The notes: generated from the sequence alone by a model not told the origin. DNA of 42,817 bases from an uncultured Spirochaetales bacterium (GCA_964403735.1 CAYOHN010000001.1:1-42817), one strand, 5' to 3'; positions 15,956-37,775 are shown, counted from the stretch's first letter. Made by a program: numbers and translations.

Positions 15956-17029
15956 TCACGTCCGTCGCCCGGCCAACGCCTCGATGAGCTTTTCGCGCAG
16001 GCGATCCGGATCGACGGGCTTCTTGAAGATCACACCCTCGAGACCTTCCAGGCGGCTGCGTTTGATCACGTGATCACGGTCGTAGTGGAACGCAGTCATC
16101 ATCAGCACGGGCAGTTCCGGGAAGCGCTCGCGCACGGCCAGGAACAGCTCGTAGCCATCCATGTTCGGCATCACCACGTCGCTGAGCACGATGTCGATGC
16201 CGCCCTTCTCGAGCACGGCCAGCGCTTCGACGCCGTCGCCGGCGGTCTCGACGTGACAGCCCTCGCCAGTCAGCAGCTCGGCGAGCGACTTGCGGATGCC
16301 GAGGTCGTCGTCGGCGATCAGGATCCGCGCACCCGCCAGGCGGGGATCCGGCGCGTGGGCGCCGGGCTTGTGGGATCGCAGGTCCACCATGCGCGCGGGA
16401 CCGACGTATTGCACGGTCTCGTATTTTTCGCCGGCCGCCATCTCGCCGACCCGTTCGACGATCTCGGCGATCCGGGCGATCTCGCGCCGGATCGCATCGA
16501 TGCGCTCGGTCTCCACCGAGCAGTCGGCCTCGCCCGCCAGCCGATCGACGTCGCGCTCGAGCAGCTCGGCCTGGTTCAGGATCACGGCGAGCGGATTGTT
16601 GATCTCGTGCGACAGCCCGATCGCCACCTCACCGAGCGTCGCGAGCTGATCCTTCTGCAGGATCTCGCGCAGATCCTTGGCGAAGCCGATGGTGCCGTCC
16701 TCGCGACCGTGGTCGTCGTGGAGGAGCGTGCCAGAAATCGCCACCGGGATCTCTTCTCCGGTCTTCGACAGGAACGTGGTCCGGAGGTGAGCGGCGATGC
16801 CGCGCCCCCCGTGCTCGGGCCTCCGCATCGCGGACATCACGCGCCTGGCTTCGTCGAGGCTCGGATACAGCTTCGCGACGAAGTGCCCGAGGATCTCGTC
16901 CGGCCGATAGCCGAGAATCTGGCTCGCCCCGTCGTTGTAGTAGTCGACGACCCCCTTGCGGTCCGTCGCCACCACGATGTCCGTGGAGCTGGCGATCAAC
17001 TGCTCGAGTCGTTCCCGGGTGAGCGCCAT
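15956..17029 (-). CDS. PAS - HisKA(DHp) - receiver protein lacking an HATPase_c domain
   Basis: PAS (IVVATDRKGVVDYYNDGASQILGY..), H-box LSHEINNPLAVIL, then a ~70-aa linker runs straight into REC (ILIADDDLG..DIVLSDVVMPNMDG..VLMMTA..IFKKP). Start ATG 17029 has an upstream GAGGGCGGA. Confidence 0.85.
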   Translation of the reverse strand: MALTRERLEQLIASSTDIVVATDRKGVVDYYNDGASQILGYRPDEILGHFVAKLYPSLDEARRVMSAMRRPEHGGRGIAAHLRTTFLSKTGEEIPVAISGTLLHDDHGREDGTIGFAKDLREILQKDQLATLGEVAIGLSHEINNPLAVILNQAELLERDVDRLAGEADCSVETERIDAIRREIARIAEIVERVGEMAAGEKYETVQYVGPARMVDLRSHKPGAHAPDPRLAGARILIADDDLGIRKSLAELLTGEGCHVETAGDGVEALAVLEKGGIDIVLSDVVMPNMDGYELFLAVRERFPELPVLMMTAFHYDRDHVIKRSRLEGLEGVIFKKPVDPDRLREKLIEALAGRRT

Positions 17030-17063
17030 GGGTACTCGTCCGCCCTCGCTCGTGGTCTTCCGG

Positions 17064-18281
17064 TCAGTGGATTCCCTGGACCGCCAGCCAGCGCTCGGCG
17101 TCGATCGCCGCCATGCAGCCGGTCCCCGCGGCCGTGACGGCCTGCCGGTAGACCGGGTCCGTGGCGTCACCACACGCGAAGACGCCGTCGATGGACGTGT
17201 AGGTAGAACCGGGCTTCACGCGGATGTAGCCGACGTCGTCGGTCTCGAGCTGGTCGCGCACCAACGCCGTGTTCGGCTCGTGCCCGATCGCCACGAACAG
17301 CGCGCCGACGGCGAGCTCGCGGGTCTGGCCAGTCTTCACGTCCCGGATCCGCACGCCGGTGACGAACTCGTCGCCGAGCACCTCGTCCACCTCGGCGTTC
17401 CATGCGAACTCGATCTTCTCGCTCTTGCGCGCGCGCTCCGCCATGATCTTCGAGGCGCGCAGCTCGTCGCGGCGATGGATCAGGGTGACCTTCGGCGCAT
17501 AGCGCGCGAGGAACAGCGCCTCCTCCACCGCCGTGTCACCGCCGCCGACGACGGCCATGTCCTTGCCCTTGAACAGCGCGCCGTCGCAGGTGGCGCACGC
17601 TGACACGCCGCGGTTCGTCAGCCGCTCCTCGGACGGCAGGCCGAGCCACTTCGCCGACGCGCCGGTCGACAGGATCACCGCATCGGCGGTGAACGAGCGC
17701 TCGCTGGTCTCGATCCGGAAGGGCCGCTGCGCGAGATCGATCCGGGTCGCGTCTTCCTGGTAGACGCGCGCGCCGAAGCGCTCGGCCTGCTTCTGGAAGC
17801 GCTCCATCATGTCCGGCCCGGACAGCGCCTCGGGAAACCCGGGATAGTTCTCGACGTCCGTCGTGAGCATCAGTTGGCCACCGATCGCGAGACCGGCGAC
17901 GACGACCGGGTGCAGCTCCGCGCGCGCGGCGTAGAGCGCCGCCGTCCAGCCGGCGGGACCCGAGCCGACGATCACGAGCTTCACGTGCTCGGCCGCCGCG
18001 CCGCCGCCAGCACCCGGCCCGCCCCCATCGATCCCGAGCAGGCCGTCGAGCTGGCCGGTCTGGTCGAGCGCCGAGAGATCGTCGAAGCCGCCGACGTGGC
18101 GCTCGCCGATCCAGATCTGCGGCACCGTCCGCTGCCGACTGCGCTCGATCATCTCGTCGCGCCGATGGGGTTCTGCCTCGATGTCGATCTCGGTCCACTG
18201 CTGCCCCCTCGCCGCGAGCAGTCGCTTGGCCATGTCGCAGTACGGGCAGGACGGCTTCGAGTAGATCGTGATCTCGGGCAT
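17064..18281 (-). CDS. trxB: Glutaredoxin fused to a low-Mr thioredoxin-disulfide reductase
   Basis: N-terminal Grx fold with CPYC (ITIYSKPSCPYCDMAKRLL..TVPQIWIGERHVGGFDDL). A Gly-rich linker follows. Then TrxR with VIVGSGPAGWTAALYAAR, the redox centre ACATCDG, VVGGGDTAVEEA and FACGD. Confidence 0.9.
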   Translation of the reverse strand: MPEITIYSKPSCPYCDMAKRLLAARGQQWTEIDIEAEPHRRDEMIERSRQRTVPQIWIGERHVGGFDDLSALDQTGQLDGLLGIDGGGPGAGGGAAAEHVKLVIVGSGPAGWTAALYAARAELHPVVVAGLAIGGQLMLTTDVENYPGFPEALSGPDMMERFQKQAERFGARVYQEDATRIDLAQRPFRIETSERSFTADAVILSTGASAKWLGLPSEERLTNRGVSACATCDGALFKGKDMAVVGGGDTAVEEALFLARYAPKVTLIHRRDELRASKIMAERARKSEKIEFAWNAEVDEVLGDEFVTGVRIRDVKTGQTRELAVGALFVAIGHEPNTALVRDQLETDDVGYIRVKPGSTYTSIDGVFACGDATDPVYRQAVTAAGTGCMAAIDAERWLAVQGIH

Positions 18282-28664: not shown

Positions 28665-29144
28665 CTATAGCCGCCGGTCCAGCACGTTCACGAAGCCCGC
28701 GAAGCCGAGCGCGCGCCAGAACGCATCGCCCGTCGGGTTGCGCACCGCCACGCGGACCTCGATCCGGCGCACGTCGAGCGACCGCGCCCAGTCGAGCGCC
28801 TGGCGCGCGAGCGCCGTCCCGACGCCCTGCCGGCGCGACGCGGGCGCGACGGCGATCTCGGTGATCTCGACGCGCTGGCGCTCGGTCGCGGCCGACGGCG
28901 CGGCCCGTCGCTGCGCCGCACAGAAGCCGGCGACGCCCCCGGGTCCCTCCCAGACCCACAGGGCCGCAGCGGGATCGCGCAGGATCCGGTCGACGGCGGC
29001 CGCCAACTCGGCGCCGGCGCCCGGCCGCAGCGAGAAGGCTGCGTCGAGCGCGGCGTGCTGCGTCACGAGCGCCTCCCACAGCGCCGCCACGGCCGCCCGA
29101 TCGGCCGGACGCGCGGGGCGCACGTCGCCCCGCGGCGCACTCAC
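28665..29144 (-). CDS. GNAT-family N-acetyltransferase
   Basis: ITEIAVAPASRRQGVGTALARQALDWAR (acetyl-CoA binding motif A). GTG 29144 overlaps the upstream stop (GTGA). Confidence 0.85.
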   Translation of the reverse strand: MSAPRGDVRPARPADRAAVAALWEALVTQHAALDAAFSLRPGAGAELAAAVDRILRDPAAALWVWEGPGGVAGFCAAQRRAAPSAATERQRVEITEIAVAPASRRQGVGTALARQALDWARSLDVRRIEVRVAVRNPTGDAFWRALGFAGFVNVLDRRL

Positions 29145-30160
29145 GGCAGCAGCTCTCCGGCTCCCAGCATGCGCTGCACTTCCTCGAGGCTCTTGCCCTC
29201 CTCGAAGATCTGCTGCTCGATCTGCTTCGTCAGCGATTCGATCTGCGGCGTAAAGCGGCGCGGATCCTGATCTTGCTGGCGATAGGCCTCTTCGACGCTG
29301 CTGCGGATCTGGCGCCGCGCAGTCTCCCGCTCCTCCGCCGTCACTTCGACGCCCGCCGGCACGCGTCCCTCGGAAAGGGCGCGGATCTGATCGTCCGACA
29401 GATTCAGACCCACCTGCGACGCGAACATCTGCCGCAGCCGCTGCTCCTGCGTCAGGCCGCTGCCGCGCACCTTCTCGGTTTCCCCGGAACGGATCATCCG
29501 GAACCGGCCGACCTGCGTCCCGTCGCGCTGATAGCTGCCGACGAGCTCGTTGCCGTCGGCGACGATGGTTTCGGTTCGATACTGGGTGCTGCCGTCCATC
29601 GATTCGGCGATGCCGCCGCCCAGCGAGTCGTCGCGCCGGAAGCGCGGCGTGCCGCCGGCATCCTCGATCGTCCAGTCCTCGCTGTACGTCAGCACCACGG
29701 CCGATCCGGCCGCCGCGGGGCCCGACGTCGATCGCCAGTTGCCGTCGCCATCGCCGCCCGACGAAGCGAGCGTCTCGATCTTGACGCCGCGCGAGTTCAC
29801 CTGGAGTCCGTTCCGGATGTCCGCGAGCTGCGCGTCGTTCGGCTCCCAGGCGGCGAGAACCCGCGACCGCCGATTGCCGCCGAGCGCTTCGAAGCGTCCC
29901 TCCTCACTGTCGAGGACGACGATCGGCCACTCGGTCCACTCGAGCTGGTCGCCCTGGCGGGCGAAGCGCCACACCCGGTCCTCCCAGCGCCACGCCTCGG
30001 GATTGTTCGACGCGGAGTCCTGGTAGTGCATCAGCACGTACCAGGTGCCCTCGAGATCGAGCGCCAGCACGGGGGACGCGGCGAGCGCCAGGGCGACGCC
30101 GGCGAGCAGCGCGCGGACGCGCCTCCGAGCGCGGACGGCGCGCGGGCGGACCGGGCCCAT
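29141..30160 (-). CDS. Secreted hypothetical protein (signal peptide, beta-rich middle, charged helical C-terminus)
   Basis: MGPVRPRAVRARRRVRALLAGVALALAASPVLALDLEG.. is a signal peptide. ATG 30160 overlaps the upstream stop (ATGA). No family recognised. Confidence 0.75.
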   Translation of the reverse strand: MGPVRPRAVRARRRVRALLAGVALALAASPVLALDLEGTWYVLMHYQDSASNNPEAWRWEDRVWRFARQGDQLEWTEWPIVVLDSEEGRFEALGGNRRSRVLAAWEPNDAQLADIRNGLQVNSRGVKIETLASSGGDGDGNWRSTSGPAAAGSAVVLTYSEDWTIEDAGGTPRFRRDDSLGGGIAESMDGSTQYRTETIVADGNELVGSYQRDGTQVGRFRMIRSGETEKVRGSGLTQEQRLRQMFASQVGLNLSDDQIRALSEGRVPAGVEVTAEERETARRQIRSSVEEAYRQQDQDPRRFTPQIESLTKQIEQQIFEEGKSLEEVQRMLGAGELLP

Positions 30161-31830
30161 CAGATCCTCCGCTCCACGTGCGGGAAGCTGCGCCACACCG
30201 GCACTCCGCAGAAATGGCTGCCCTCGGTGCAGCGCGGGCGCACGAGGCCGTTGCGCACGAAACACGGGGGGCCGACGTGGCGCACCAGCTCCGGGTGCAC
30301 GTCCCGCACCTGCGCCAGCTCGTCCATCGACGCCTCGTAGATCTCGCGCTGCGCGTTGAGGCAGGTGCGCATCGTCCACTTGTGGAGCAGGTGCAACAGC
30401 GAACCCGACTCCTCGAAACGAACCGCCAGCGCATTCGGCAACACGTAGAGCGCCTGCTGCGGAGACACGCCGAGCGCCGACAGGCGCGCCCGGGCATCCC
30501 ACGCCGCCTCGACGGCCTCCTGGAACCTCGCGTGGCAGGCCGGGTCTTCGCGGATCAGCTCGGGTTCGACGACGTCCACGGCGGCGGGCACCGTGCGCGA
30601 GAGCAGCGGCCGCGACCCAGGCACCATCCGGTGTCGCTGATCCTGGGAGTCCGCCGTGTGCGAGAGCTTCTTGCGGAAGCTGTAGTGGGCGTGCTCGAGC
30701 GCACGCAGGATCGGTGCGTGGGTCGAGACGTTCAGCGTGTCGAGACGGTGCGGATTGCGGGCGGGATCGAGCGCCAATGCCAGCGCCTCGGCGTCGCCGA
30801 GGTCCGCGCGGCCGAGCACGTGGCGCACGGCATCCGCGACCACCTGCGGCGCCCGGGCGCCCCAATCCACCAACAACGCGCGGCGGCCGCCCAGCGACGC
30901 GTCGAACGCGGCGAGCGCTTCCCCGTCGCCGACTCCGGCCGGCGCGACGTGAGTCTCGACGACGTCCTCCTCGCGGAGCGCCGGATCCCCGATCTCGGAG
31001 AAGAACGCCGGGTCCACGCGCTCGACCGCGGCCAGCATCCGGCCGACGACGTCGCGAGCCTCGTCCGGCGCGTCGCAGGTGGCGGCCATGCGCCGGAGCC
31101 GGTGCAGCACCAGACCCGATACGGTGTAGACCATCGCCGTCTGCGTCGCGAGCGGAAGCACGTAGCGCGCGGTTTCGATCGCCTTCTTCTCGGCTTCCTT
31201 CGCGACGTTTTTGCCGAACGCCTCGTTCTTGCGCTGATCGAGCCGCCAGAGGTCCGAGAGGATCCCGCGCGTGAGGGGCGTCAGCCGCCGCGTCAGCTCG
31301 CGGTACGCACCCCAGGCTCGGGACACCGCCGCGACGTACACGGCTCGCGCTTCGCCGCCGAGCTCCGGCGGCACGTGGGCCCGTGCTTCGTCGAGCCGGA
31401 CGTATCGCTGACTCTGCTGCTCGGTGTTGTAGAACGGGAACGCGTGCAGGAAGCACCACACGAGCTGGCGCGAGATCCCGGACAGCGAGAACTCGAAGGT
31501 CGCGTGTTGGTAGACGGTGTGGTGGCCGCCCTGGAAGGTCAGCGGACCGATGTTGCGGCGCTGGCGGGGCGTGATCTCGTCGGCCTCGATCACGCGCGGC
31601 GAATAGCAGGTGCGCGCCGCGGCAATCGCGTCGTCGTACGGGCGCTCGAACCAGTTCCGGAGTCGGACCTCGGCGCCGCCGTCGACGACCGGGAAGGCCC
31701 CGGTCGCGTCGGACGACGCAGCGGATCGCCCGGTCGCGCGGTCGTCGGACGCGCGTGGGTCGATCGGCCGGTCGTCGACCGGCCGGTCGTCTACCGCGTG
31801 CTGGCCGATCGCGCGGGGGAGGGTGGTCAA
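30160..31830 (-). CDS. thyX: Tandem-domain ThyX-like (FAD-dependent thymidylate synthase family) protein
   Basis: 556 aa. The first half carries TEQQSQRYV (the S-x-R-Y part of the ThyX motif) without RHR. The second half carries SQDQRHRMVPGS (the RHR part). TTG start 31830 has GGAG 6 nt upstream. Confidence 0.55.
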   Translation of the reverse strand: MTTLPRAIGQHAVDDRPVDDRPIDPRASDDRATGRSAASSDATGAFPVVDGGAEVRLRNWFERPYDDAIAAARTCYSPRVIEADEITPRQRRNIGPLTFQGGHHTVYQHATFEFSLSGISRQLVWCFLHAFPFYNTEQQSQRYVRLDEARAHVPPELGGEARAVYVAAVSRAWGAYRELTRRLTPLTRGILSDLWRLDQRKNEAFGKNVAKEAEKKAIETARYVLPLATQTAMVYTVSGLVLHRLRRMAATCDAPDEARDVVGRMLAAVERVDPAFFSEIGDPALREEDVVETHVAPAGVGDGEALAAFDASLGGRRALLVDWGARAPQVVADAVRHVLGRADLGDAEALALALDPARNPHRLDTLNVSTHAPILRALEHAHYSFRKKLSHTADSQDQRHRMVPGSRPLLSRTVPAAVDVVEPELIREDPACHARFQEAVEAAWDARARLSALGVSPQQALYVLPNALAVRFEESGSLLHLLHKWTMRTCLNAQREIYEASMDELAQVRDVHPELVRHVGPPCFVRNGLVRPRCTEGSHFCGVPVWRSFPHVERRI

Positions 31831-31941
31831 CCGAAGCTCCGTGGGTGGATCGCGGTACTCTGGCAGAGGCCCACCGCAGCAGCAACGACCTCCCGGCGAC
31901 GCGAGCGAGTGCAGCCGCGAGGGGCGCTGAATTGCTCATTT

Positions 31942-31956: not shown

Positions 31957-32090
31957 CCCTAGCGCCGCGCACGATCCGCCGGGCGCCTACCGGCGCGTTC
32001 TGCGACCGGACGGCGGGTTTCGGCGCCGAGGGCGGCGGTTGCGGGCGCGGATGCGCTAACGCTGCGCGTCAGTGAGGCGCGCGCGAGCGT

Positions 32091-32105
32091 TGGCACGTGG
32101 TTTGC
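32091..32105 (+). promoter_or_regulatory. Sigma-54 (-24/-12) promoter upstream of the EBP-like/kinase operon
   Basis: TGGCACGTGGTTTGC fits TGGCACG-N4-TTGC exactly. GG is at 32092-93 and GC at 32104-05 (N10). Confidence 0.7.
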
Positions 32106-32206
32106 CCCTTCGCCCGTGGCGAGCCGTGTGCCCGCGGACCCCAACCGCGCGAGACTCCGCAGCGAGATCTCGCCCCCCCACCCGGCAGCAGCGGAGACAG
32201 CGGAAC

Positions 32207-34240
32207 TTGGCGGCGAGCTTCTGGATCTTGCATCGCGACCCGCGCTGGCGCGAGGCGCTTCGGCGCCTCGTCGGAGGCGCTCCGCTGCTCGGCGACCCGG
32301 CCGATCCGAGCGCGCTGGCCGACGCGCCGCGGCCGCAGGCGATCCTGCTCGGCGCGAGCGGTGACTTCGAGGCGGAGCTGGCTTGGGCGCACCGCGTGGC
32401 GTCTCGCGGATCTCGGAGCCCATTGGCGGACGCCGGCGGCCCCGCCGACGGCGCGCCGCCGTTGTGGCTGGTCCTCGTCGAGCCGCGCGATGTGGCGGAG
32501 GCGCGGCGCCTGTTCGACGGGCTGCCCGCCGACGTGCTCGCCGTTTCCGGGGACCTCGCGGAGCTGCGGGCGACGCTGCGCGCGGCGTTGGCGCGCCGCC
32601 GCGCGGCGGCGCTCTCCGAGCGCCGCCAGCGCGATCGGTTGCAGGCGCGCTTCTCGCGCTGGCTCGGAGACCTCGACGCACCGGAGCTGCTGGCGGCCAT
32701 CGATCCGGCGCGGCGCGCGCTGCCGCTGCTGATCCGCGGAGAACCGGGGACCGGGCGCGGCCTGCTCGCTCGCTATCTCCACCTCCAGGCCGGCACGGGC
32801 GGTGACGCAGGGGGCTGCTTCGCGAGCCTTTCCTGTGGACCGGACCTCGAAGCCGGGCCGCTGCTCGCCGGGATCGTCCCCGAGGTGGGAAACCCGAGCG
32901 CCGCGCAGTCGCTGACCCTCTGCGTCGAGGACGCCGACGCGCTCGCGCCGGCGGTGCAGCGGAGGCTGGCGCACTGGATCGAGAACGGGCCTCCGCCGGG
33001 CCTGCTCCGCGGTTCGCCGTTGCGCTGGATGGCCACTGCGGGAGATCCCGTCCGCGACGAGCGGCTCGAGCCAGACCTCGCGCGCGCGCTGGCCGGACTC
33101 TTCGTGCGCATCCCGCCGCTGCGCGACCGGCTCGAAGCGGTGAAGCGGATCGCAGAGGAGACGGCGCAGGAATGGATCGCGCTGCGCGGGGGCCAGCCGG
33201 AAGCTCGGAGTGCCGCGCGCTTTGCAGACGACGCCCTCGCCGCCCTGCACTCCCATGCATGGCCCGGGAACGCACGCGAACTCGAGGCCGTCGTCCGGCG
33301 CACGCTCGCCACGACGCGTCGGGATCCGGTTCGCGCGGCCGATCTGGTGTTCGACGCACTCGTGGTGGGGCCACTCGGGATCCAGCATGACGCGCCGGAT
33401 GGCGCGTATGACGCAGACGGGAGTTACTTTGACGCAAGCGTCATGACCGATCCCGCAGCGACCCCCGCCGATGACGCACCGCCGCCTGCCGCGTCGGATC
33501 CGACCGAGCCCACCGCGAACGGATCTCCTGCCCGGGGACCGCACGACCGGGGACCGTACGACGTCCGGGCGAGCGTCGACGCCCCTTTTCGCCGGCTCGC
33601 CGGCGCCGTCGCTCACGAAGTCGGCAACCCGCTCGTCGGAATTCGCACCTTTGCGCAGATGCTGCCGAGCCGCTTCGACGACCCCGAGTTCCGCGAGCAG
33701 TTTGCCGCCCGGGTCGAAGCGGATACTCGCCGCATCGAAGCCGTCGTCGACACGCTGGCGCGGCTCGGCTCGCTGCCCCCGCCGGCGCGAACCGCCGTCG
33801 ACGTCTCGGGGCTGATCGCCCGGCTGCTCCAGCTCCAGCGGCCGCGGATCCAGGAAGGGCGACTCGTCGTGCTCGAAGAGCTCGACCGGGAGTCTCCGCA
33901 CGCGCTGGGCGATGCCGAGCAGCTGCGGTTTGCGCTCGGGCTGTTGCTCGAAGAGGCGCTGGCTTCGCTCGCCGCGTCTTCGCTCGCCGAGCCGGGAGAT
34001 CTCTACGTCGCGACGACGCATCAACCGGCAACCGCTGCGGGTGGCGACGCCCGGCTGCGGATTCTCGTGCGCTCGCGCGGCGGTCCGCGCCAGGCCGTGG
34101 ACGTGGGACTGCGGGCGAGCGAGAACACGCTCGCCGTCGCGGCCGTCGAGGCGATCGTCCGCGCGCACGATGGCTCGCTCACCGTCGAGACCGGCGTCCC
34201 CGGCGAGACGCTGGTCCTGATCGAGCTGCCGGCGCCGTAG
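32207..34240 (+). CDS. Fusion protein: receiver-like N-terminus + degenerate sigma-54-activator AAA+ domain + HisKA + degenerate HATPase_c
   Basis: The AAA+ part has LLIRGEPGTGRG (Walker A Lys replaced by Arg), LCVEDAD in place of LFLDE, no GAFTGA, and AWPGNARELE. It is followed by the H-box AVAHEVGNPLVGIRTF. The C-terminal CA-like region lacks the N-box Asn (LLLEEAL) and the G1/G2 boxes. Start moved to TTG 32207 because listed start 32072 lies upstream of the promoter. Confidence 0.75.
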   Translation: MAASFWILHRDPRWREALRRLVGGAPLLGDPADPSALADAPRPQAILLGASGDFEAELAWAHRVASRGSRSPLADAGGPADGAPPLWLVLVEPRDVAEARRLFDGLPADVLAVSGDLAELRATLRAALARRRAAALSERRQRDRLQARFSRWLGDLDAPELLAAIDPARRALPLLIRGEPGTGRGLLARYLHLQAGTGGDAGGCFASLSCGPDLEAGPLLAGIVPEVGNPSAAQSLTLCVEDADALAPAVQRRLAHWIENGPPPGLLRGSPLRWMATAGDPVRDERLEPDLARALAGLFVRIPPLRDRLEAVKRIAEETAQEWIALRGGQPEARSAARFADDALAALHSHAWPGNARELEAVVRRTLATTRRDPVRAADLVFDALVVGPLGIQHDAPDGAYDADGSYFDASVMTDPAATPADDAPPPAASDPTEPTANGSPARGPHDRGPYDVRASVDAPFRRLAGAVAHEVGNPLVGIRTFAQMLPSRFDDPEFREQFAARVEADTRRIEAVVDTLARLGSLPPPARTAVDVSGLIARLLQLQRPRIQEGRLVVLEELDRESPHALGDAEQLRFALGLLLEEALASLAASSLAEPGDLYVATTHQPATAAGGDARLRILVRSRGGPRQAVDVGLRASENTLAVAAVEAIVRAHDGSLTVETGVPGETLVLIELPAP

Positions 34241-34363
34241 CGACGGGCGGCTCCCGCCGTGGCGGCGGAGTCGGCGGCGCCCGCCGGCGCTGGGTCGCTC
34301 TGGCAGCTCGTGCAGCCCGGGAGCGGGCGCGACTCGCTCGCTGCGCGGTACCTTCGGCTGGGA

Positions 34364-35776
34364 ATGAGCCGGATCCTGGTCGTCGACGATGAGCAAGGCG
34401 TGCGGGAGTCCCTGCGCCTGCTGCTGAAGGACGAGCACGAGGTCGCCGCCGTCGGCAGCGTCGACGAGGCCCTGCGCGCGCTCGACGAGCAGGCGGCGGA
34501 CCTGGTGCTGCTGGACCTCGTCATGCCGGGCCGCAGCGGCCTCGAGCTGTTGCGCGAGTTCGCCGAGCGCGGCGAGGGCCCGCCGGTGGTCATGGTCTCG
34601 GCGACGCGCGCCATCCCGGCCGCCGTCGAGGCGATGAAGCTCGGCGCGGTGGACTTCGTGACGAAGCCGTTCGAGGTCGACGCGCTGCGCATCAAGGTGC
34701 GGCAGATCCTCGAACACCGCGAGCTCGAGCGAGAGGTGGTGCGGCTGCGCGACGAGATCGCCGAGCGCTCGCGCTTCGGGCGACTGATCGGCCGCAGCGA
34801 CGCGATGCGCGCAGTGTACCGGACCATCGAGCGGGTCGCGGAGGCGCGCGCGAACGTGCTGATCACCGGAGAGAGCGGAACCGGCAAGGAACTCGTCGCC
34901 CGCGCGATCCACGAGTTGGGGCCGCGACGCGACGCGCCGCTGGTCGTCGTCAACTGCGCGGCGATTCCCGAGACGCTGATGGAGAGCGAGCTCTTCGGCC
35001 ACGAGCGGGGCTCGTTCACCGACGCCCGCGAACGCAGGATCGGCAAGTTCGAAGCGGCGAACGGCGGGACGCTCTTTCTCGACGAGATCGCCGAGCTTCC
35101 GCTCGGCGTCCAGGCGAAGCTGCTGCGAGCACTGCAGGAGCGCAGCGTCGAGCGGGTCGGGTCGAACCTTTCGATTCCCGTGGACGTGCGGGTGCTTGCG
35201 GCGACCAACCAGGATCTCGAGCGGGCGGTCGCCGCTGGCCGGTTCCGCCCGGACCTGTTCTATCGGATCCACGTGGTGCCGATCGCGCTGCCGCCGCTGC
35301 GCGATCGCCGCGAGGACATCCGGCTGCTGGCCGAGACCTTCCTCGCGCGCGCGCGCGCCGATGCCGACCGCGGTCCGTCGCGGATCGCCGCCGCGGCCGC
35401 CGCCGCGCTCGAACGCCATTCGTGGCCCGGCAACGTCCGCGAACTCGAGAATGCGATCGAACGCGCGGTCGCGCTGGCCGATGGAGACGTCCTCGAGCTG
35501 ACCGATCTGCCCGACGAGATTCAGCAGGCCGCTCGGCACGAGGGATTGCGCGACGAGGTCCGCGCCGGCCGCGTCGATCTCGAAACCGCCGTCGCCCGCT
35601 TCGAGGGCGAGCTGCTCCGCGAGACGCTGCTGCGGACCGGGGGCAACCAGACCCGGGCGGCCGAACGGCTCGGGATCACGCGGCGCGTGCTGAAGCTCAA
35701 GATGGACCGCTACGGTCTCGCGTCTTCCCCAGGCGGCGAGAGCGATGCGAACGAGTTCGCAAAGCTGGAGCTCTGA
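34364..35776 (+). CDS. NtrC-family sigma-54-dependent response regulator (REC + AAA+ + Fis-type HTH)
   Basis: ILVVDDEQGVRE..LVLLDLVMPG..FVTKPF; LITGESGTGKE; GSFTDA in the GAFTGA position; TLFLDEI; SWPGNVRELEN; HTH GGNQTRAAERLGITRRVLKLKMDRYGL. Confidence 0.9.
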   Translation: MSRILVVDDEQGVRESLRLLLKDEHEVAAVGSVDEALRALDEQAADLVLLDLVMPGRSGLELLREFAERGEGPPVVMVSATRAIPAAVEAMKLGAVDFVTKPFEVDALRIKVRQILEHRELEREVVRLRDEIAERSRFGRLIGRSDAMRAVYRTIERVAEARANVLITGESGTGKELVARAIHELGPRRDAPLVVVNCAAIPETLMESELFGHERGSFTDARERRIGKFEAANGGTLFLDEIAELPLGVQAKLLRALQERSVERVGSNLSIPVDVRVLAATNQDLERAVAAGRFRPDLFYRIHVVPIALPPLRDRREDIRLLAETFLARARADADRGPSRIAAAAAAALERHSWPGNVRELENAIERAVALADGDVLELTDLPDEIQQAARHEGLRDEVRAGRVDLETAVARFEGELLRETLLRTGGNQTRAAERLGITRRVLKLKMDRYGLASSPGGESDANEFAKLEL

Positions 35777-35793: not shown

Positions 35794-35927
35794 GTTCCTA
35801 CCGTTCTTGTCGTTCCGATCGGAACAGTTCCATTTCCAGAATGAAATCGGATACTTGGAACGGATCTGGCGGGCCGGGCGTTCGCGTCGGAACGTTTCCG
35901 GCGCCGCGCAGCGAGCGGCACCGGAAC
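35794..35927. promoter_or_regulatory. Cluster of GTTCC/GGAAC half-sites and palindromes (candidate enhancer/UAS)
   Basis: GTTCCGATCGGAAC is a perfect 14-bp palindrome at 35812-35825 and overlaps GGAACAGTTCC at 35821-35831. CGGAA-CGT-TTCCG is at 35888-35900. Extra GGAAC occur at 35857 and 35923, and GTTCC at 35794. The cluster lies 60-190 bp upstream of the -24 element. Confidence 0.5.
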
Positions 35928-35982: not shown

Positions 35983-35997
35983 TGGCATGTGTTTTGC
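35983..35997 (+). promoter_or_regulatory. Sigma-54 (-24/-12) promoter upstream of the HD-GYP/PilZ operon
   Basis: TGGCATGTGTTTTGC has GG at 35984-85, N10, and GC at 35996-97. GGAGG at 36032-36036 and GTG 36043 follow. Confidence 0.75.
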
Positions 35998-36042: not shown

Positions 36043-37254
36043 GTGATCGACCGATGCCAGCCGCGAGCCACCGTGCTCGTCGTCGACGACGAGCGTGGCC
36101 CGCGCGAGTCTCTCCGCATGATCCTGTCCCCGGTCTACCGCGTGCTCGCGGTCACGACCGGCAGCGAAGCCGTCGAGGTGCTGCGCACGACTCCGGTGGA
36201 TGTCGTAACGCTGGACCTGGCGATGCCGGGCCTGCGCGGCGCCGAGCTGATCCGCCTGGTCCGCGGCGAGTTCCCCGATGTCGAGCTGATCGTCATCACG
36301 GGGCACGGAACGCTCGAGTCGGCCACCGAAGGCATCCGCTGGGGCATCGCCGACTATCTCCAGAAGCCGTTCGACGTGATGCAGGTGACGGCGGCGGTCT
36401 ATCGGGCGCTGGCGCGGAGGAGGGGCCGCTGCCGGCTCGTGAGCTTCCTCGAAGAACTCGGCGACACGGTGGGGCGCGACGCCGACGTCGCGAACATCCT
36501 GGCGCGCGTCGAAGACAGCTCGGACCTGCGCGGCCGGCTCGGCGAACTCCTCGCCAAGCAGGTCGGGGATCCGGCGCCGGCGGACTGCTTCGACCCGGAC
36601 CGCGTGCTGCCGTTCTTCGAGGTGCTCGCGCAGGCCGGCGAGGCCCAGGATCCCTACCAGCGCGGCCATGGGCGACGCGTCGCGTTCTTCGCCACGCTGC
36701 TCGCCGACCGCCTGTGTCTGTCGGCGGAGCAGAAGCGCAACACGCGCATCGCGGCGTTCCTGCACGACATCGGCAAGATCGGCGTCCCGGCCGAAGTGCT
36801 CGCGCGGCGCGGGGAGCTGGCCGAACCGGAGCGGCGGATCATCGAACGCCACTGCGAGATCGGCGGGCGCCTGCTCGAGCCGCTCGGACTCAGCGCAGAG
36901 ATCGTCGGCGCAGTCCGCCATCACCACGAGCGCTGGGACGGCTGTGGCTATCCCGACGGACTCGCCGGAGAAGCGATCCCGCTCGGCGCACGGATCGTGC
37001 AGATCGCCGACGCGTTCGACGCGATGACGACGGACCGTCCCTGGCGCTGCGCGCGGACGCAGGCCGCAGCGATCGGCGAGCTGCGCCGCGAAGCGGATGG
37101 CCAGTTCGACCCGACGCTGGCCAAGGAGTTCGCCGTCCTCCTCGAGAGCGGCGTGTGCGACATGGACATCGAACGCGTGGCCGACGCGATGGCAACCGCC
37201 AGCGCGGCCACGCGGGTCTCGGCTGCGCCGTCGGCGTTGCGAAGGGCAGGATGA
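36043..37254 (+). CDS. Response regulator with an HD-GYP domain (candidate c-di-GMP phosphodiesterase)
   Basis: REC: TVLVVDDERG..VVTLDLAMPG..VITGHG..YLQKPF. HD-GYP: AAFLHDIGKIGVP, HHERWDGCGYPDG, IADAFDAMTTDRP. Start is GTG 36043. Listed ATG 35989 sits inside the promoter. Confidence 0.85.
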   Translation: MIDRCQPRATVLVVDDERGPRESLRMILSPVYRVLAVTTGSEAVEVLRTTPVDVVTLDLAMPGLRGAELIRLVRGEFPDVELIVITGHGTLESATEGIRWGIADYLQKPFDVMQVTAAVYRALARRRGRCRLVSFLEELGDTVGRDADVANILARVEDSSDLRGRLGELLAKQVGDPAPADCFDPDRVLPFFEVLAQAGEAQDPYQRGHGRRVAFFATLLADRLCLSAEQKRNTRIAAFLHDIGKIGVPAEVLARRGELAEPERRIIERHCEIGGRLLEPLGLSAEIVGAVRHHHERWDGCGYPDGLAGEAIPLGARIVQIADAFDAMTTDRPWRCARTQAAAIGELRREADGQFDPTLAKEFAVLLESGVCDMDIERVADAMATASAATRVSAAPSALRRAG

Positions 37255-37775
37255 GCAGAGGGGGGCAACCGATGCGCGGAGCAGGGGGCCAGCTCGCGTT
37301 CGATTTCGGGGGGAACGCGAGCGCCGGTAGGCCGCGTCCCGTGCGCAAGGTGCGACGGGACGATGCCGTGCGACTGGTGGAGTACGCACCGTTTCCGCGG
37401 ATCCAGAGGGATTCGCGCTGGCGGCACGGCTTCACGCTCGACCTTTCGTCGCGGGGCCTGTGTGTCCGGACGAAGGACGTCGCGCCGGTGGGCTCCTGGC
37501 TTCGCATCATCCTTCGCAGCGTCGACGGACAGCCGACTCTCGATTGCGTCGCCCGGGTGGCGTGGTCCGAGGATCGGGGCGGATCCCCGCGCATGGGCCT
37601 CGAGGTCATCGAACGGAAGGGGCCCCTGCGCGTACGCCGGGATCTCCCGGTTCCCGCGGCGTCGCCGTCGCGACGCGAGCACTCGGACTCCGCGCCGCGC
37701 GCCATCGCGCCGCCGCTCGCGCTCGTGCACCGCAGCCGCATCGACGCGGGCGCGCCGGCGGCCGTTGCCTCCTGA
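37251..37775 (+). CDS. PilZ-like domain protein
   Basis: RKVRRDDAVR (RxxxR-type) followed about 25 aa later by DLSSRGLCV (DxSxxG). ATG 37251 overlaps the HD-GYP stop (ATGA). In frame with listed ORF 35745..37775. Confidence 0.65.
   Translation: MSRGGQPMRGAGGQLAFDFGGNASAGRPRPVRKVRRDDAVRLVEYAPFPRIQRDSRWRHGFTLDLSSRGLCVRTKDVAPVGSWLRIILRSVDGQPTLDCVARVAWSEDRGGSPRMGLEVIERKGPLRVRRDLPVPAASPSRREHSDSAPRAIAPPLALVHRSRIDAGAPAAVAS

Follow-up and report, generated by a model that had tools for sequence, protein, structure and literature searches.

The usual way to read two-component and sigma-54-dependent signalling from sequence is to count kinases, receivers and activators. The locus described herein raises the question of what a protein does that would be counted under all three headings, although each of the three enzymatic activities is probably missing from it. 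An initial annotation of the window (the whole stretch of DNA that was analysed, 42,817 nucleotides) had described one polypeptide made of four parts, namely a receiver-like N-terminus, an EBP-type AAA+ module, a DHp with an H-box and a CA-like tail, encoded between a consensus sigma-54 promoter and an intact NtrC-type activator gene. We show herein that this protein belongs to an unnamed, conserved family of uncultured Myxococcota. As judged from profile alignments and predicted folds, the catalytic residues of the receiver, the AAA+ activator module and the kinase ATP-binding domain are all lost, and the histidine helix alone is intact. The phospho-acceptor histidine is kept almost solely where a live NtrC-type activator gene adjoins. 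The best explanation, which we put forward tentatively and at slightly less than an even chance, is that the protein does not autophosphorylate but serves the adjacent EBP as a two-component partner, and that its DHp would dephosphorylate the receiver of that EBP or exchange phosphoryl groups with it, under sigma-54-driven feedback.

Results

One gene, one polypeptide

The first in-frame start gives an open reading frame at 32072-34240 on the plus strand. The TTG at 32207 was used as the start codon; the product is identical to database protein P0001, and its N-terminus agrees with those of the orthologues (M..lWIvHRDp). Features of the locus are collected in Table 1. When the full 677-residue protein was searched against Pfam, Sigma54_activ_2 was matched at residues 168-305, AAA_lid_14 at 334-381 and HisKA at 462-519, and neither Response_reg nor HATPase_c gave a match at E<=1. 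The AlphaFold (AF2) model has a mean pLDDT of 83.9. Foldseek matched its N-terminal half to NtrC1, NtrX, VpsR and LuxO, and its C-terminal half to HK853, DivL, ZraS and RetS, while profile-profile alignment (hhalign) to the intact neighbouring EBP gave a probability of 99.4% across receiver, linker and AAA+. Taken together, Pfam, hhalign, AlphaFold and Foldseek bear out the four-part composition that had been claimed.

Table 1. Features of the family gene and its surroundings (positions are those of the window)
Feature	Position	Strand	Basis or remark
Sigma-54 (-24/-12) promoter TGGCACgtggtTTGC	32091..32105	+	~100 nt upstream of start codon
Whole family gene	32207..34240	+	TTG start, TAG stop, 677 aa; pseudo-REC, pseudo-EBP AAA+, tether, DHp, pseudo-CA
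Pseudo-receiver (aa 1-115)	32207..32551	+	hhalign vs neighbouring EBP receiver; AF2 fold
Linker helix (aa 116-158)	32552..32680	+	AF2 helix 117-153; counterpart of NtrC1/LuxO-type REC-AAA+ linker
EBP-type AAA+ plus lid (aa 159-385)	32681..33361	+	Pfam, PDB, Foldseek, hhalign; determinants of ATPase activity and sigma-54 contact missing
Walker A GEPGTGRG (aa 178-185)	32738..32761	+	Arg184 where Lys expected
Walker B position LCVEDAD (aa 238-244)	32918..32938	+	E241-D242 opposite D-E of neighbouring EBP (hhalign)
Lid/sensor II motif WPGNARELE (aa 352-360)	33260..33286	+	Retained
Disordered tether (aa 386-452)	33362..33562	+	Low-complexity, Pro/Ala/Asp-rich; pLDDT <50 over 389-452
HisKA-type DHp hairpin (aa 453-525)	33563..33781	+	Pfam HisKA; AF2 helices 453-489, 493-521
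H-box AHEVGNPL (aa 469-476)	33611-33634	+	H470 codon 33614-33616
Family-specific DHp loop FDDPEFR	33674-33694	+	Within DHp hairpin
Pseudo-CA (aa 526-677), Bergerat-type alpha/beta domain	33782..34237	+	Profile to ZraS; Foldseek
Partner gene, intact NtrC/AtoC-type sigma-54 activator (REC, AAA+, lid, HTH_8)	34259..35776	+	Pfam, NCBIfam
Dyad GTTCCG-N2-CGGAAC, two copies	35812..35893	+	Candidate upstream activator site
Second sigma-54 promoter TGGCATgtgttTTGC	35983..35997	+	Ahead of REC-HD-GYP gene
Output genes REC-HD-GYP (to 37254) and PilZ-domain protein (~37269-37775)	36043..37775	+	Pfam

Almost no weight can be given to the view that the frame is an artefact, be it a sequencing frameshift that joins two genes or a decaying pseudogene. 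No evidence for it was found, and the one weak point is the central tether, ~65 residues long, which evolves fast (dN/dS 0.60) and varies in sequence and length among family members. Against it, third-position GC marks one uninterrupted coding frame across the 32207-34240 ORF, more than 200 full-length relatives share an identical architecture (100% query coverage, identity down to 38%), the AF2 model is confident, and comparison with a 79%-identical orthologue gives a dN/dS of 0.22 for the whole gene and of 0.09-0.23 for the folded modules. The relatives, the single frame and the dN/dS values rule out a frameshift or two-gene origin, which the initial annotation had named as a way in which it might be wrong. 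The pseudo-domains (0.14-0.23) are under purifying selection comparable to that on the live neighbouring EBP (0.17). The word "degenerate", which that annotation had used, misleads if it means decay; the substitutions have become fixed across the family and are maintained by purifying selection.

The family comprises 162 clusters at 50% identity from Myxococcota metagenome-assembled genomes (MAGs) and metagenomes. Its taxonomy was taken from source names only (Myxococcota or "Deltaproteobacteria" MAGs), because a profile search of genome contigs with the full-length alignment returned ordinary activators (23-36% identity) and no orthologues; that search was swamped by generic WPGNxRELE and HisKA patterns and gave no usable taxonomy. 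Pfam and NCBIfam hold no model specific for this architecture, the database source names are generic, and no description of an EBP-pseudoATPase/kinase architecture was found in the literature. These searches agree with the earlier statement that no described family was known.

The activator half lacks its catalytic residues

The N-terminus folds as a (beta-alpha)5 receiver in the AF2 model, and Foldseek aligned ~410 columns with the REC and AAA+ domains of NtrC1; together with hhalign, these results confirm its receiver-like nature. When it is aligned with the receiver of the neighbouring EBP, H9-R10 stand where the acidic pair DD would be and G49 stands at the phospho-acceptor Asp, and neither the conserved Thr/Ser nor the Lys is left. 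Of the 219 relatives, 191 have Gly at position 49 and none has Asp, and the dN/dS of this domain is 0.20. In the linker helix that follows, R139, R142 and R148 are invariant in the homologue alignment, and the PDB sequence matches to LuxO and NtrC1 begin at residue 116.

An AAA+ fold with its lid is present in the AF2 model and is matched by Foldseek to NtrC1 and PspF. Sequence models recognize it less readily: Sigma54_activat (14.8 bits, cutoff 20.2) and Sigma54_activ_2 (24.7 bits, cutoff 25) both stay below their gathering thresholds, and AAA_lid_14 is the sole Pfam model of the AAA+ region to pass its cutoff. The changes noted earlier by eye were upheld by profile alignment, and no intact Walker A, Walker B, N or G boxes emerged that had been misaligned. 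The Walker A Lys is replaced by Arg184, a residue found in 120/120 homologues and, among the full-length relatives, in 211/219, with Lys in 6/219; when intermediates with an intact AAA+ module were sought among these 219 relatives, those few with a Walker A Lys were what was found. LCVEDAD stands in place of the Walker B hhhhDE of the intact neighbour, with E (152 sequences) or D (35) at position 241 and D (115) or E (58) at position 242 across the family. The GAFTGA L1 loop is removed by a 13-residue deletion and is missing family-wide. Both arginine fingers are gone as well (FRxDLyyRL aligns to LEPDLARALAG, and neither Arg position is conserved), and sensor I is lost. What remains is the sensor II Arg (R357) within WPGNARELE, a motif that had been correctly recognized as retained and whose W352, N355 and E358 are invariant in alignment A1. 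The module has a dN/dS of 0.14.

The best structural matches of this half were 1NY5, 5M7P and 5EP0. In common with EBPs of the NtrC1, DctD and LuxO type, the family protein has the order receiver, long linker helix, AAA+ plus lid. In contrast to them, it has no phospho-Asp, Walker A Lys, DE pair, GAFTGA, Arg fingers or HTH_8, and a kinase core sits where the DNA-binding domain would be. Since the P-loop keeps its glycine pattern and the sensor II Arg is likewise conserved, nucleotide binding at the Arg P-loop site is plausible on these residues. The use of an EBP fold for purposes beyond ATP-driven sigma-54 remodelling has parallels in VpsR, TyrR and the c-di-GMP sensor FleQ, and VpsR and FleQ are among the Foldseek matches. 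These three work as transcription factors and still have both a DNA-binding domain and the Walker A Lys. VpsR is described as lacking residues needed for sigma-54 activation (PMC6158489). Because HD-GYP and PilZ genes adjoin, binding of c-di-GMP by the pseudo-AAA+ module, by analogy with FleQ and VpsR, was also considered, but only as speculation.

The DHp hairpin is intact, and the ATP-binding boxes are missing

The second half begins with a HisKA-type hairpin (Pfam E = 1.8e-8) in which the H-box AHEVGNPL that had been noted earlier lies at residues 469-476. H470 and E471 are invariant in alignment A1; among the 219 relatives, E471 is kept in 192 and N474 in 182. With a dN/dS of 0.09, the DHp has the lowest value of all parts of the protein. 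Among named sequences, the DHp and the CA-like region match best to AtoS (E = 4.5e-12), ZraS (2e-16, with the family profile) and NtrB (8e-7), that is, to cognate kinases of NtrC-family activators. The family protein has in common with these kinases the H-E-x-x-N-P-L H-box and the position of its gene directly upstream of an AtoC/NtrC-type regulator. It differs from them in that the N, G1 and G2 boxes are absent, and in that a pseudo-activator replaces the PAS or transmembrane sensor. In HisKA proteins, a Thr or Asn at position H+4 is needed for phosphatase but not kinase activity, and an acidic residue at the position of E471 is needed specifically for kinase activity (PMC3510030).

Over the tail, the family profile aligns across the entire DHp and CA of ZraS (E = 2e-16), and this alignment corroborates the reported loss of the N-box Asn and the G1 and G2 glycines. 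Throughout the family, the N box is without its Asn, G1 without its Asp and G2 without its glycines. At the N-box position, the window protein has Glu (LLLEEALASL), which is not conserved among relatives; the G1 strand reads LRILVRSRGG, with S623 at the Asp position (mostly Phe in the family; register assigned manually); and SENTLAV aligns to GTGLGLA of ZraS at G2. The ATP lid is, by estimate, ~10 residues shorter than that of HK853. HATPase_c is detectable in 4 of 23 members at E<=1. The tails of divergent members, on inspection, equally lack the N, G1 and G2 boxes, and a search among the relatives for intermediates with an intact CA domain found none that has any of these boxes. DxGxG and GxGxG strings in some relatives were considered as genuine G boxes and rejected as out of register. 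In spite of these losses, the domain is matched by Foldseek to HK853, DivL, RetS and ZraS and has a dN/dS of 0.17.

Might the protein nevertheless be a cryptic active kinase, with ATP bound non-canonically, whether in the remodelled CA domain or at the P-loop of the AAA+ module, and with H470 autophosphorylated? Nla6S of Myxococcus, which has an EBP as its partner, is a kinase with an atypical CA domain, and in work attributed to Sarwar and Garza in 2012 it is said to autophosphorylate all the same, so that loss of motifs is no absolute proof of inactivity. The conserved P-loop glycine pattern and sensor II Arg, and the kinase-specific acidic residue E471 in 192/219 relatives (PMC3510030), would also fit a kinase. 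However, all three universal GHKL determinants of ATP binding are missing and the lid appears shortened; the AAA+ module has no Walker A Lys, no catalytic Glu position and no Arg fingers; and the disordered tether intervenes between AAA+ and DHp. We consider a cryptic kinase quite improbable.

Retention of the histidine follows the adjacent activator gene

An EBP gene lies downstream in 25 of 25 His-containing members, whereas four of five His-less members (H to R, Q, T and R) have no EBP gene in the locus; the exception, L091, is His-less and still has it. This association gives a one-sided Fisher p of 1.8e-4, a value not corrected for phylogeny. Since the nearest relatives of the His-less proteins contain His, the losses are independent and number at least four. 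Such repeated co-loss of a residue and a partner gene is an evolutionary signal that ties the one to the other without an experiment, and it lends comparative support to the earlier suggestion that the protein acts on the neighbouring NtrC-type activator through its DHp. On the other hand, the pseudo-AAA+ module and its P-loop Arg are fully retained in members that lack the adjacent EBP gene.

These observations bear on a second alternative, in which the protein is a purely stoichiometric anti-activator or decoy. It would co-assemble with the live EBP in off-state heterodimers, or in poisoned mixed rings without Arg fingers or GAFTGA, the DHp would just clamp the receiver, and there would be no need for phosphoryl chemistry. 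In favour of it, the NtrC1 dimer in its inactive state (1NY5) ranks first among the structural matches, the long linker helix is conserved with its invariant arginines, and several lineages that lost the His retain the protein in full, in one case alongside the EBP. DivL and RetS, pseudokinases whose kinase fold acts through protein binding, are also among the fold and sequence matches, and His-less family members resemble DivL; however, DivL and RetS occur in PAS or periplasmic sensor contexts with no EBP-like half, and the window protein retains its His. Where the EBP is present, it is the His-bearing DHp that is most constrained, and where it is missing, the pseudo-AAA+ module and its Arg P-loop persist, so co-assembly with that neighbour cannot be their sole purpose. 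This persistence weakens the mixed rings with the adjacent NtrC paralogue that had been suggested earlier. For the decoy, therefore, "unlikely" seems the proper word.

The persistence of the Arg P-loop would itself be explained if the P-loop were a working nucleotide site that replaces the dead Bergerat domain and either phosphorylates H470 across the tether or gates the DHp, with members that lost His and partner gene keeping it as a sensor only. We regard this as very improbable.

Promoters, partner and downstream genes

The element TGGCACgtggtTTGC has a single exact match in the window, where 0.04 would be expected by chance. The consensus sigma-54 promoter that had been reported ahead of the gene is also conserved: in 39/45 related loci, the family gene has this element no more than 300 nt upstream, and members without an adjacent EBP still keep it. 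The neighbour is, as had been stated, an intact NtrC-type activator with REC, AAA+ and HTH_8. Its likely true start is the ATG at 34364, and its best match is AtoC (1.2e-138). It carries GESGTGK, GTLFLDE, the phospho-Asp motif LLDLVMP and the L1 loop GSFTDA, all conserved in orthologues.

Beyond the activator lie genes for a REC-HD-GYP regulator (HD_5, 2.9e-39, plus Response_reg) and a PilZ protein (PilZ, 1.1e-9), and their synteny is conserved in related loci. The dyad GTTCCG-N2-CGGAAC occurs ahead of them as one exact copy (35812-35825) and one copy with 2 mismatches (35880-35893), and it recurs at the equivalent intergenic position in L001, L003, L004, L005, L094, L110, L115 and L118; equivalents of the second promoter, TGGCATgtgttTTGC, are present in L001, L004 and L005. 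Across 38 loci, this dyad is absent upstream of the family gene's own promoter, and no other dyad is shared there, clade-specific ones only being found (GGAAA-N4-TTTCC in 8 of these loci). Therefore, autoregulation by the adjacent EBP is an assumption. The operon contains no gene for a canonical kinase. A second CA-less protein, of the order PAS-HisKA-REC, is encoded in the same window.

Discussion

The explanation that we prefer, a non-autophosphorylating partner of the adjacent EBP, would have as its ancestor a kinase core of the NtrB/AtoS/ZraS type whose CA domain was turned into a structural pseudo-domain. Its sensor region would be an activator copy that has fallen catalytically silent, made up of the pseudo-receiver and the pseudo-AAA+ module and held on the flexible tether. 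The DHp dimer is predicted to dock the receiver of the EBP, and H470-E-x-x-N474 may remove the receiver's phosphoryl group as a phosphatase, exchange it reversibly from Asp~P to His~P, or both; His~P made from ATP would be beyond this protein. If the co-encoded EBP drives the sigma-54 promoter, the protein would build up when the EBP is active and feed back negatively. The adjacent EBP most likely drives the REC-HD-GYP and PilZ operon through the candidate dyads, in which case c-di-GMP turnover would be the output of the pathway. Dimerisation, tethering or nucleotide sensing via the Arg P-loop is the probable task of the pseudo-EBP half; because this half survives loss of the adjacent EBP gene, it needs a role beyond that gene.

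Several results favour this explanation. Kinase chemistry is probably absent, with all its boxes missing and HATPase_c essentially undetectable, and ChpT provides a precedent for a DHp and Bergerat-fold pair that does not autophosphorylate (PMC3433190); the type of DHp, which matches AtoS, ZraS and NtrB, fits a neighbour that matches AtoC; the intact DHp is the most constrained module, and its His co-occurs with the EBP gene; and a second sigma-54 promoter with conserved dyads precedes the HD-GYP and PilZ genes. Against it stand L091, which is His-less and yet keeps the EBP gene, and the absence of a canonical kinase from the operon. The NtrB H139N and EnvZ H243V mutants reportedly show that HisKA phosphatase activity has no strict need for the His. 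Strict retention of the His thus suits phosphotransfer at least equally.

That observation leads to the remaining alternative, a histidine phosphotransferase of the ChpT/Spo0B type in a multistep relay, with a positive, activating link. H470 would receive its phosphoryl group from the receiver of another protein, such as a hybrid kinase or single-domain regulator encoded elsewhere, and pass it to the adjacent EBP and possibly also to the REC-HD-GYP regulator. ChpT of Caulobacter and Spo0B of Bacillus likewise have a dimeric, His-bearing DHp hairpin followed by a Bergerat-fold domain that has a remodelled ATP lid and does not bind ATP, and ChpT does not autophosphorylate (PMC3433190). The same design, a His-bearing DHp with a CA-like domain predicted unable to bind ATP, is recognizable here in both sequence and fold. 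Retention of the His alongside the EBP, an operon without a canonical kinase, two receiver proteins downstream (the EBP and the HD-GYP regulator) and the PAS-HisKA-REC protein, which hints at relay-type wiring in the organism, would agree with a relay. However, the H-box is the classical HisKA kinase/phosphatase box, including the phosphatase Asn, whereas those of ChpT and Spo0B are not of this type. ChpT and Spo0B also lack an N-terminal receiver-AAA+ half and are not encoded beside sigma-54 activators. Neither of their Pfam families was matched at E<=1, and the PDB and profile matches shown were to ordinary kinases, DivL and RetS. No upstream donor was identified, and while positive feed-forward from the sigma-54 promoter is possible, it leaves the pseudo-EBP half unaccounted for. 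We therefore think a relay rather unlikely, though worth bearing in mind.

In practice, an automated label of the kind "NtrC family response regulator" or "histidine kinase" misnames the proteins of this family, which represents a natural case of a dead kinase fused to a dead activator under strong constraint. It comes with a testable partner, the adjacent NtrC-type activator, and with a likely output, the HD-GYP c-di-GMP phosphodiesterase and the PilZ protein. If the P-loop were a functional nucleotide site, it would represent a new kind of kinase regulation, as a P-loop-driven histidine kinase or phosphatase has not been described so far. If the phosphatase or phosphate-sink model is true, the family would provide a new route to negative feedback in a sigma-54 circuit.

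A single 677-residue protein with four folded modules

The plus-strand ORF that ends at 34240 is readable from 32072, and a TTG start at 32207 gives a protein of 677 aa identical to the database protein P0001. The N-termini of the orthologues (M..lWIvHRDp) coincide with this start, and a direct reading of the sequence places a GGAG ~10 nt upstream of it. Third-position GC is high throughout the frame from 32207 to the stop, and the relatives listed at 100% query coverage extend down to 38% identity. When the gene was compared by the Nei-Gojobori method with a 79%-identical orthologue in the related locus L001, dN/dS was 0.20 for the pseudo-receiver, 0.23 for the linker helix, 0.14 for the AAA+ module, 0.09 for the DHp, and 0.17 for the CA-like tail; the central tether gave 0.60, and the neighbouring live activator 0.17. 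Because the coding frame is continuous, the relatives are full length, and dN/dS is low in the folded modules, the frameshift, two-gene, and pseudogene readings are excluded. The chance that the architecture is an artefact appears vanishingly small.

Above threshold, Pfam matched only AAA_lid_14 and HisKA in this protein; a Sigma54_activ_2 match fell slightly under the cutoff, and neither Response_reg nor HATPase_c was matched at E<=1. An AlphaFold model with a mean pLDDT of 83.9, computed from 68 sequences of the family, comprises four folded modules and a tether. In Foldseek comparisons, the N-terminal half aligned over ~410 columns with the receiver and AAA+ structures of NtrC1 (1NY5, inactive state), NtrX, VpsR, LuxO, and FleQ, and the C-terminal half matched the DHp and CA structures of HK853, DivL, LvrB, RetS, ZraS, and KinB.

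The loop of the DHp hairpin carries a family-specific and almost invariant motif, LP.RFDDPEFR, of which F495 and R496 are invariant. A motif of this type is absent from ordinary HisKA kinases and degenerates in at least one member (P0124) that lacks both the phospho-acceptor His and the activator gene. It is a candidate partner-contact site.

Features of the window and of the proteins it encodes
Feature	Position	Strand	Remark
PAS-HisKA-Response_reg protein	15956-17215	-	PAS aa 68-184, HisKA aa 200-258, Response_reg aa 298-410
339-aa ORF	29141-30160	-	between GNAT and ThyX genes
ThyX	30160-31935	-	divergent
Sigma-54 promoter TGGCAC-N5-TTGC	32091-32105		upstream of family gene
Family gene	32207-34240	+	
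(beta-alpha)5 domain	aa 1-115		AlphaFold model
37-residue helix	aa 117-153		AlphaFold model
AAA+ plus lid	aa 160-380		AlphaFold model
AAA_lid_14	aa 334-381		Pfam
Disordered stretch	aa 389-452		AlphaFold model
Helical hairpin	aa 453-521		AlphaFold model
HisKA	aa 462-519		Pfam
DHp loop FDDPEFR	33674-33694		aa 490-496
Alpha/beta domain	aa 529-675		AlphaFold model
Live activator (EBP)	34259-35776	+	
Tandem dyad GTTCCG-N2-CGGAAC	35812-35825 and 35880-35893		upstream of second sigma-54 promoter; first copy exact, second with 2 mismatches
Second sigma-54 promoter TGGCATgtgttTTGC	35983-35997		upstream of REC-HD-GYP/PilZ genes

Catalytic motifs lost and retained

The initial annotation had listed a series of catalytic signatures as missing, and profile-profile alignments with the neighbouring activator and with ZraS bore out the entire list. 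In the N-terminal half, where the family aligns with the intact neighbour at a probability of 99.4%, the DD of the receiver is replaced by H9-R10 and the phospho-acceptor Asp by G49, with no conservation at the Thr/Ser and Lys positions. The GESGTGKE of the neighbour aligns with GEPGTGRG, in which the Walker A Lys has become Arg; Walker B is altered from LFLDEI to LCVEDA, so that D-E reads E-D; and a 13-residue deletion takes out the L1 loop, leaving no GAFTGA. Moreover, AATN of sensor I has become ATAGD, and both arginine fingers are lost (FRPDLFYRI to LEPDLARAL). The sensor II Arg survives within WPGNxRELE, which is kept as annotated, together with IPPLRDR. P-loop K-to-R substitutions, such as RecA K72R, typically permit nucleotide binding but not hydrolysis.

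In the C-terminal half, a 23-sequence profile spanned the complete DHp and CA of ZraS (E 2e-16), and also aligned over KinB, WalK, and DivL. The N-box Asn is gone, its position being unconserved and occupied by Glu in the window protein, and so are the G2 glycines (GTGLGL of ZraS aligns with SENTLAV). By manual assignment of the register, the G1 strand is LRILVRSRGG, where Ser stands in for the Asp (most family members have Phe there), and the ATP lid is ~10 residues shorter than that of HK853. HATPase_c was found in only 4 of the 23 members at E<=1, and in the most divergent members the CA-like tail is no less degenerate.

Extent of the family

GxxGxGR was present in all 120 homologues listed. 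Among 219 full-length relatives, the Walker A Lys position is Arg in 211 and Lys in 6, the receiver Asp position is Gly in 191 and Asp in none, and the H-box residues H470, E471, and N474 (the phospho-acceptor His, His+1, and His+4) are found in 189, 192, and 182, respectively. Judged from these alignments, the catalytic substitutions are fixed traits of the family rather than decay. When 1.84 billion cluster representatives were searched exhaustively with HMMER, 162 clusters reached E<=1e-30 and 857 reached E<=1e-10. The homologues carry generic names ('hypothetical protein', 'DNA-binding NtrC family response regulator', or 'histidine kinase dimerization/phospho-acceptor domain-containing protein'), and their sources are labelled as MAGs of Myxococcota, 'Deltaproteobacteria' or 'Proteobacteria'.

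A Walker A Lys (GEEGTGKG and similar) occurs in a small minority (loci L117 and L122; proteins P0127, P0152, P0216, P0246, and P0254); in these members, too, the GAFTGA loop and the CA boxes are missing. Such proteins may either be less derived than the rest or have reverted.

The live activator and its promoters

Gene order is strongly conserved: a divergent ThyX gene is followed by the family gene and those for an NtrC/AtoC-type EBP, REC-HD-GYP, PilZ, TatA, and TatC; in the window, unrelated genes stand in place of the Tat genes. The downstream activator had been described as intact, and GESGTGK, GTLFLDE, LLDLVMP, the L1 loop G[AS]FTDA, and HTH_8 are indeed all present. The consensus sigma-54 promoter ascribed to the family gene also held up, as it is the sole exact match in the window (0.04 expected). 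When <=1 mismatch was allowed, 39 of 45 loci had the element in the 300 nt preceding the family gene, against a background of 0.044 per 300 nt.

A second sigma-54 promoter and, upstream of it, a tandem dyad occupy the same position in L001, L003, L004, L005, L094, L110, L115, and L118, and GTTCCG-N2-CGGAAC is nearly absent elsewhere within the related loci. The dyad is likely a binding site of the adjacent EBP; on the simplest reading, the EBP would bind the dyads and drive the HD-GYP/PilZ operon.

Several other features of the locus were observed. The L1 loop of the live EBP departs from the canonical GAFTGA by a Gly-to-Asp change at position 5; this form is shared by all 7 complete orthologues checked (the window, L001-L005, and L087), and an eighth, in L091, breaks off ahead of the loop. 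The EBP of the window probably begins at ATG 34364 (MSRILVVDDE) rather than at GTG 34259. The REC-HD-GYP ORF has its earliest in-frame GTG at 35989, within the sigma-54 promoter, and so this cannot be the real start; GTG 36043 (or 36073) agrees with the length of the orthologue (403 aa in L001). The ThyX ORF, which adjoins the family gene in nearly all loci, is unusually long (591 aa from stop to stop versus ~510 aa in orthologues) and has two Thy1 matches, which suggests a tandem duplication. The 339-aa ORF next to it has no Pfam match, and L001, L004, L086, and the P0090 contig each have a similarly sized, likewise unmatched gene in this place.

The phospho-acceptor His and the activator gene

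About one eighth of the family members lack the phospho-acceptor His, and the DHp around it is still recognisable (AVAREAGAPL, AVATEMRDPL, PLAQEIREPL). Loci were gathered by exact-protein look-ups and by a metagenome scan seeded with the pseudo-receiver only, and hence unbiased for the H-box, and were annotated with local HMMs. Of the His-containing members, 25 had enough sequence on their downstream side, and every one has the EBP gene there, in one case beyond a 1.6-kb insertion. On the other side of the comparison, four of five His-less members (L086, H to R; L089, H to Q; L090, H to T; L095, H to R) lack an EBP gene over the whole locus and keep the flanking synteny; the fifth, L091 (H to T), is His-less yet keeps the EBP gene. 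The contig of a sixth, L088, does not extend far enough. Fisher's one-sided p is 5/27405 = 1.8e-4, uncorrected for phylogeny and with some near-duplicates among the His-containing loci. Since the closest relatives of the His-less proteins contain the His, except for the L088/L090 pair, the His was lost at least four times independently. This pattern ties the phospho-acceptor His to the adjacent activator.

In the His-less, EBP-less members, the pseudo-receiver, the Arg P-loop, and the sigma-54 promoter are all still present, and therefore the N-terminal half must have a role independent of the adjacent activator. Given this persistence of the N-terminal half, a purely stoichiometric decoy or mixed oligomer seems quite unlikely.

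A possible mechanism

At the sequence level, the CA-like domain has no canonical ATP site, the AAA+ module has neither ATPase nor sigma-54-contact determinants, and the receiver has no phospho-acceptor; the HisKA H-box is intact, highly constrained, and of the NtrB/AtoS/ZraS kind. With such a CA-like domain, a cryptic kinase is highly improbable. Kramer and Weiss are said to have found in 1999 that NtrB fragments without the ATP-binding domain are phosphatases. In HisKA proteins, only kinase activity depends on the acidic residue beside the His, and only phosphatase activity on the Thr/Asn at H+4 (PMC3510030). ChpT pairs a DHp with a remodelled Bergerat domain, and neither binds ATP nor autophosphorylates (PMC3433190).

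We tentatively favour a model in which the window protein, without forming His~P from ATP, would act on the receiver of the adjacent activator as a non-autophosphorylating phosphatase and/or reversible phosphoryl acceptor, removing or reversibly accepting its phosphoryl group. Because the window protein is expressed from a sigma-54 promoter, this would amount to negative feedback on a circuit whose output may be c-di-GMP turnover. That the His is strictly kept alongside the activator agrees with phosphotransfer no less than with a pure phosphatase. A forward relay like that of ChpT is on the unlikely side.

The window encodes a second CA-less DHp protein, with PAS, HisKA, and Response_reg domains. 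Only ~40 residues separate its DHp from its receiver, so that a HATPase_c domain does not fit. In this organism it might serve in a relay or be a further pseudokinase.

Relation to known systems

Each element has precedents: DivL, RetS, ChpT, and Spo0B for the pseudo-kinase or DHp-phosphotransferase, VpsR and TyrR for an activator without GAFTGA, and other pseudo-receivers. As initially proposed, no described family of EBP-pseudoATPase/kinase fusions was found in the libraries and literature searched, Pfam and NCBIfam hold no family-specific model, and the literature searches returned no description of this architecture. The same libraries and literature yielded no polypeptide that joins three enzymatically silent folds to one live helix, no invariant Arg P-loop, and no constant association with a live NtrC-type activator under sigma-54 control. 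The family is of real interest to specialists in two-component and sigma-54 regulation.
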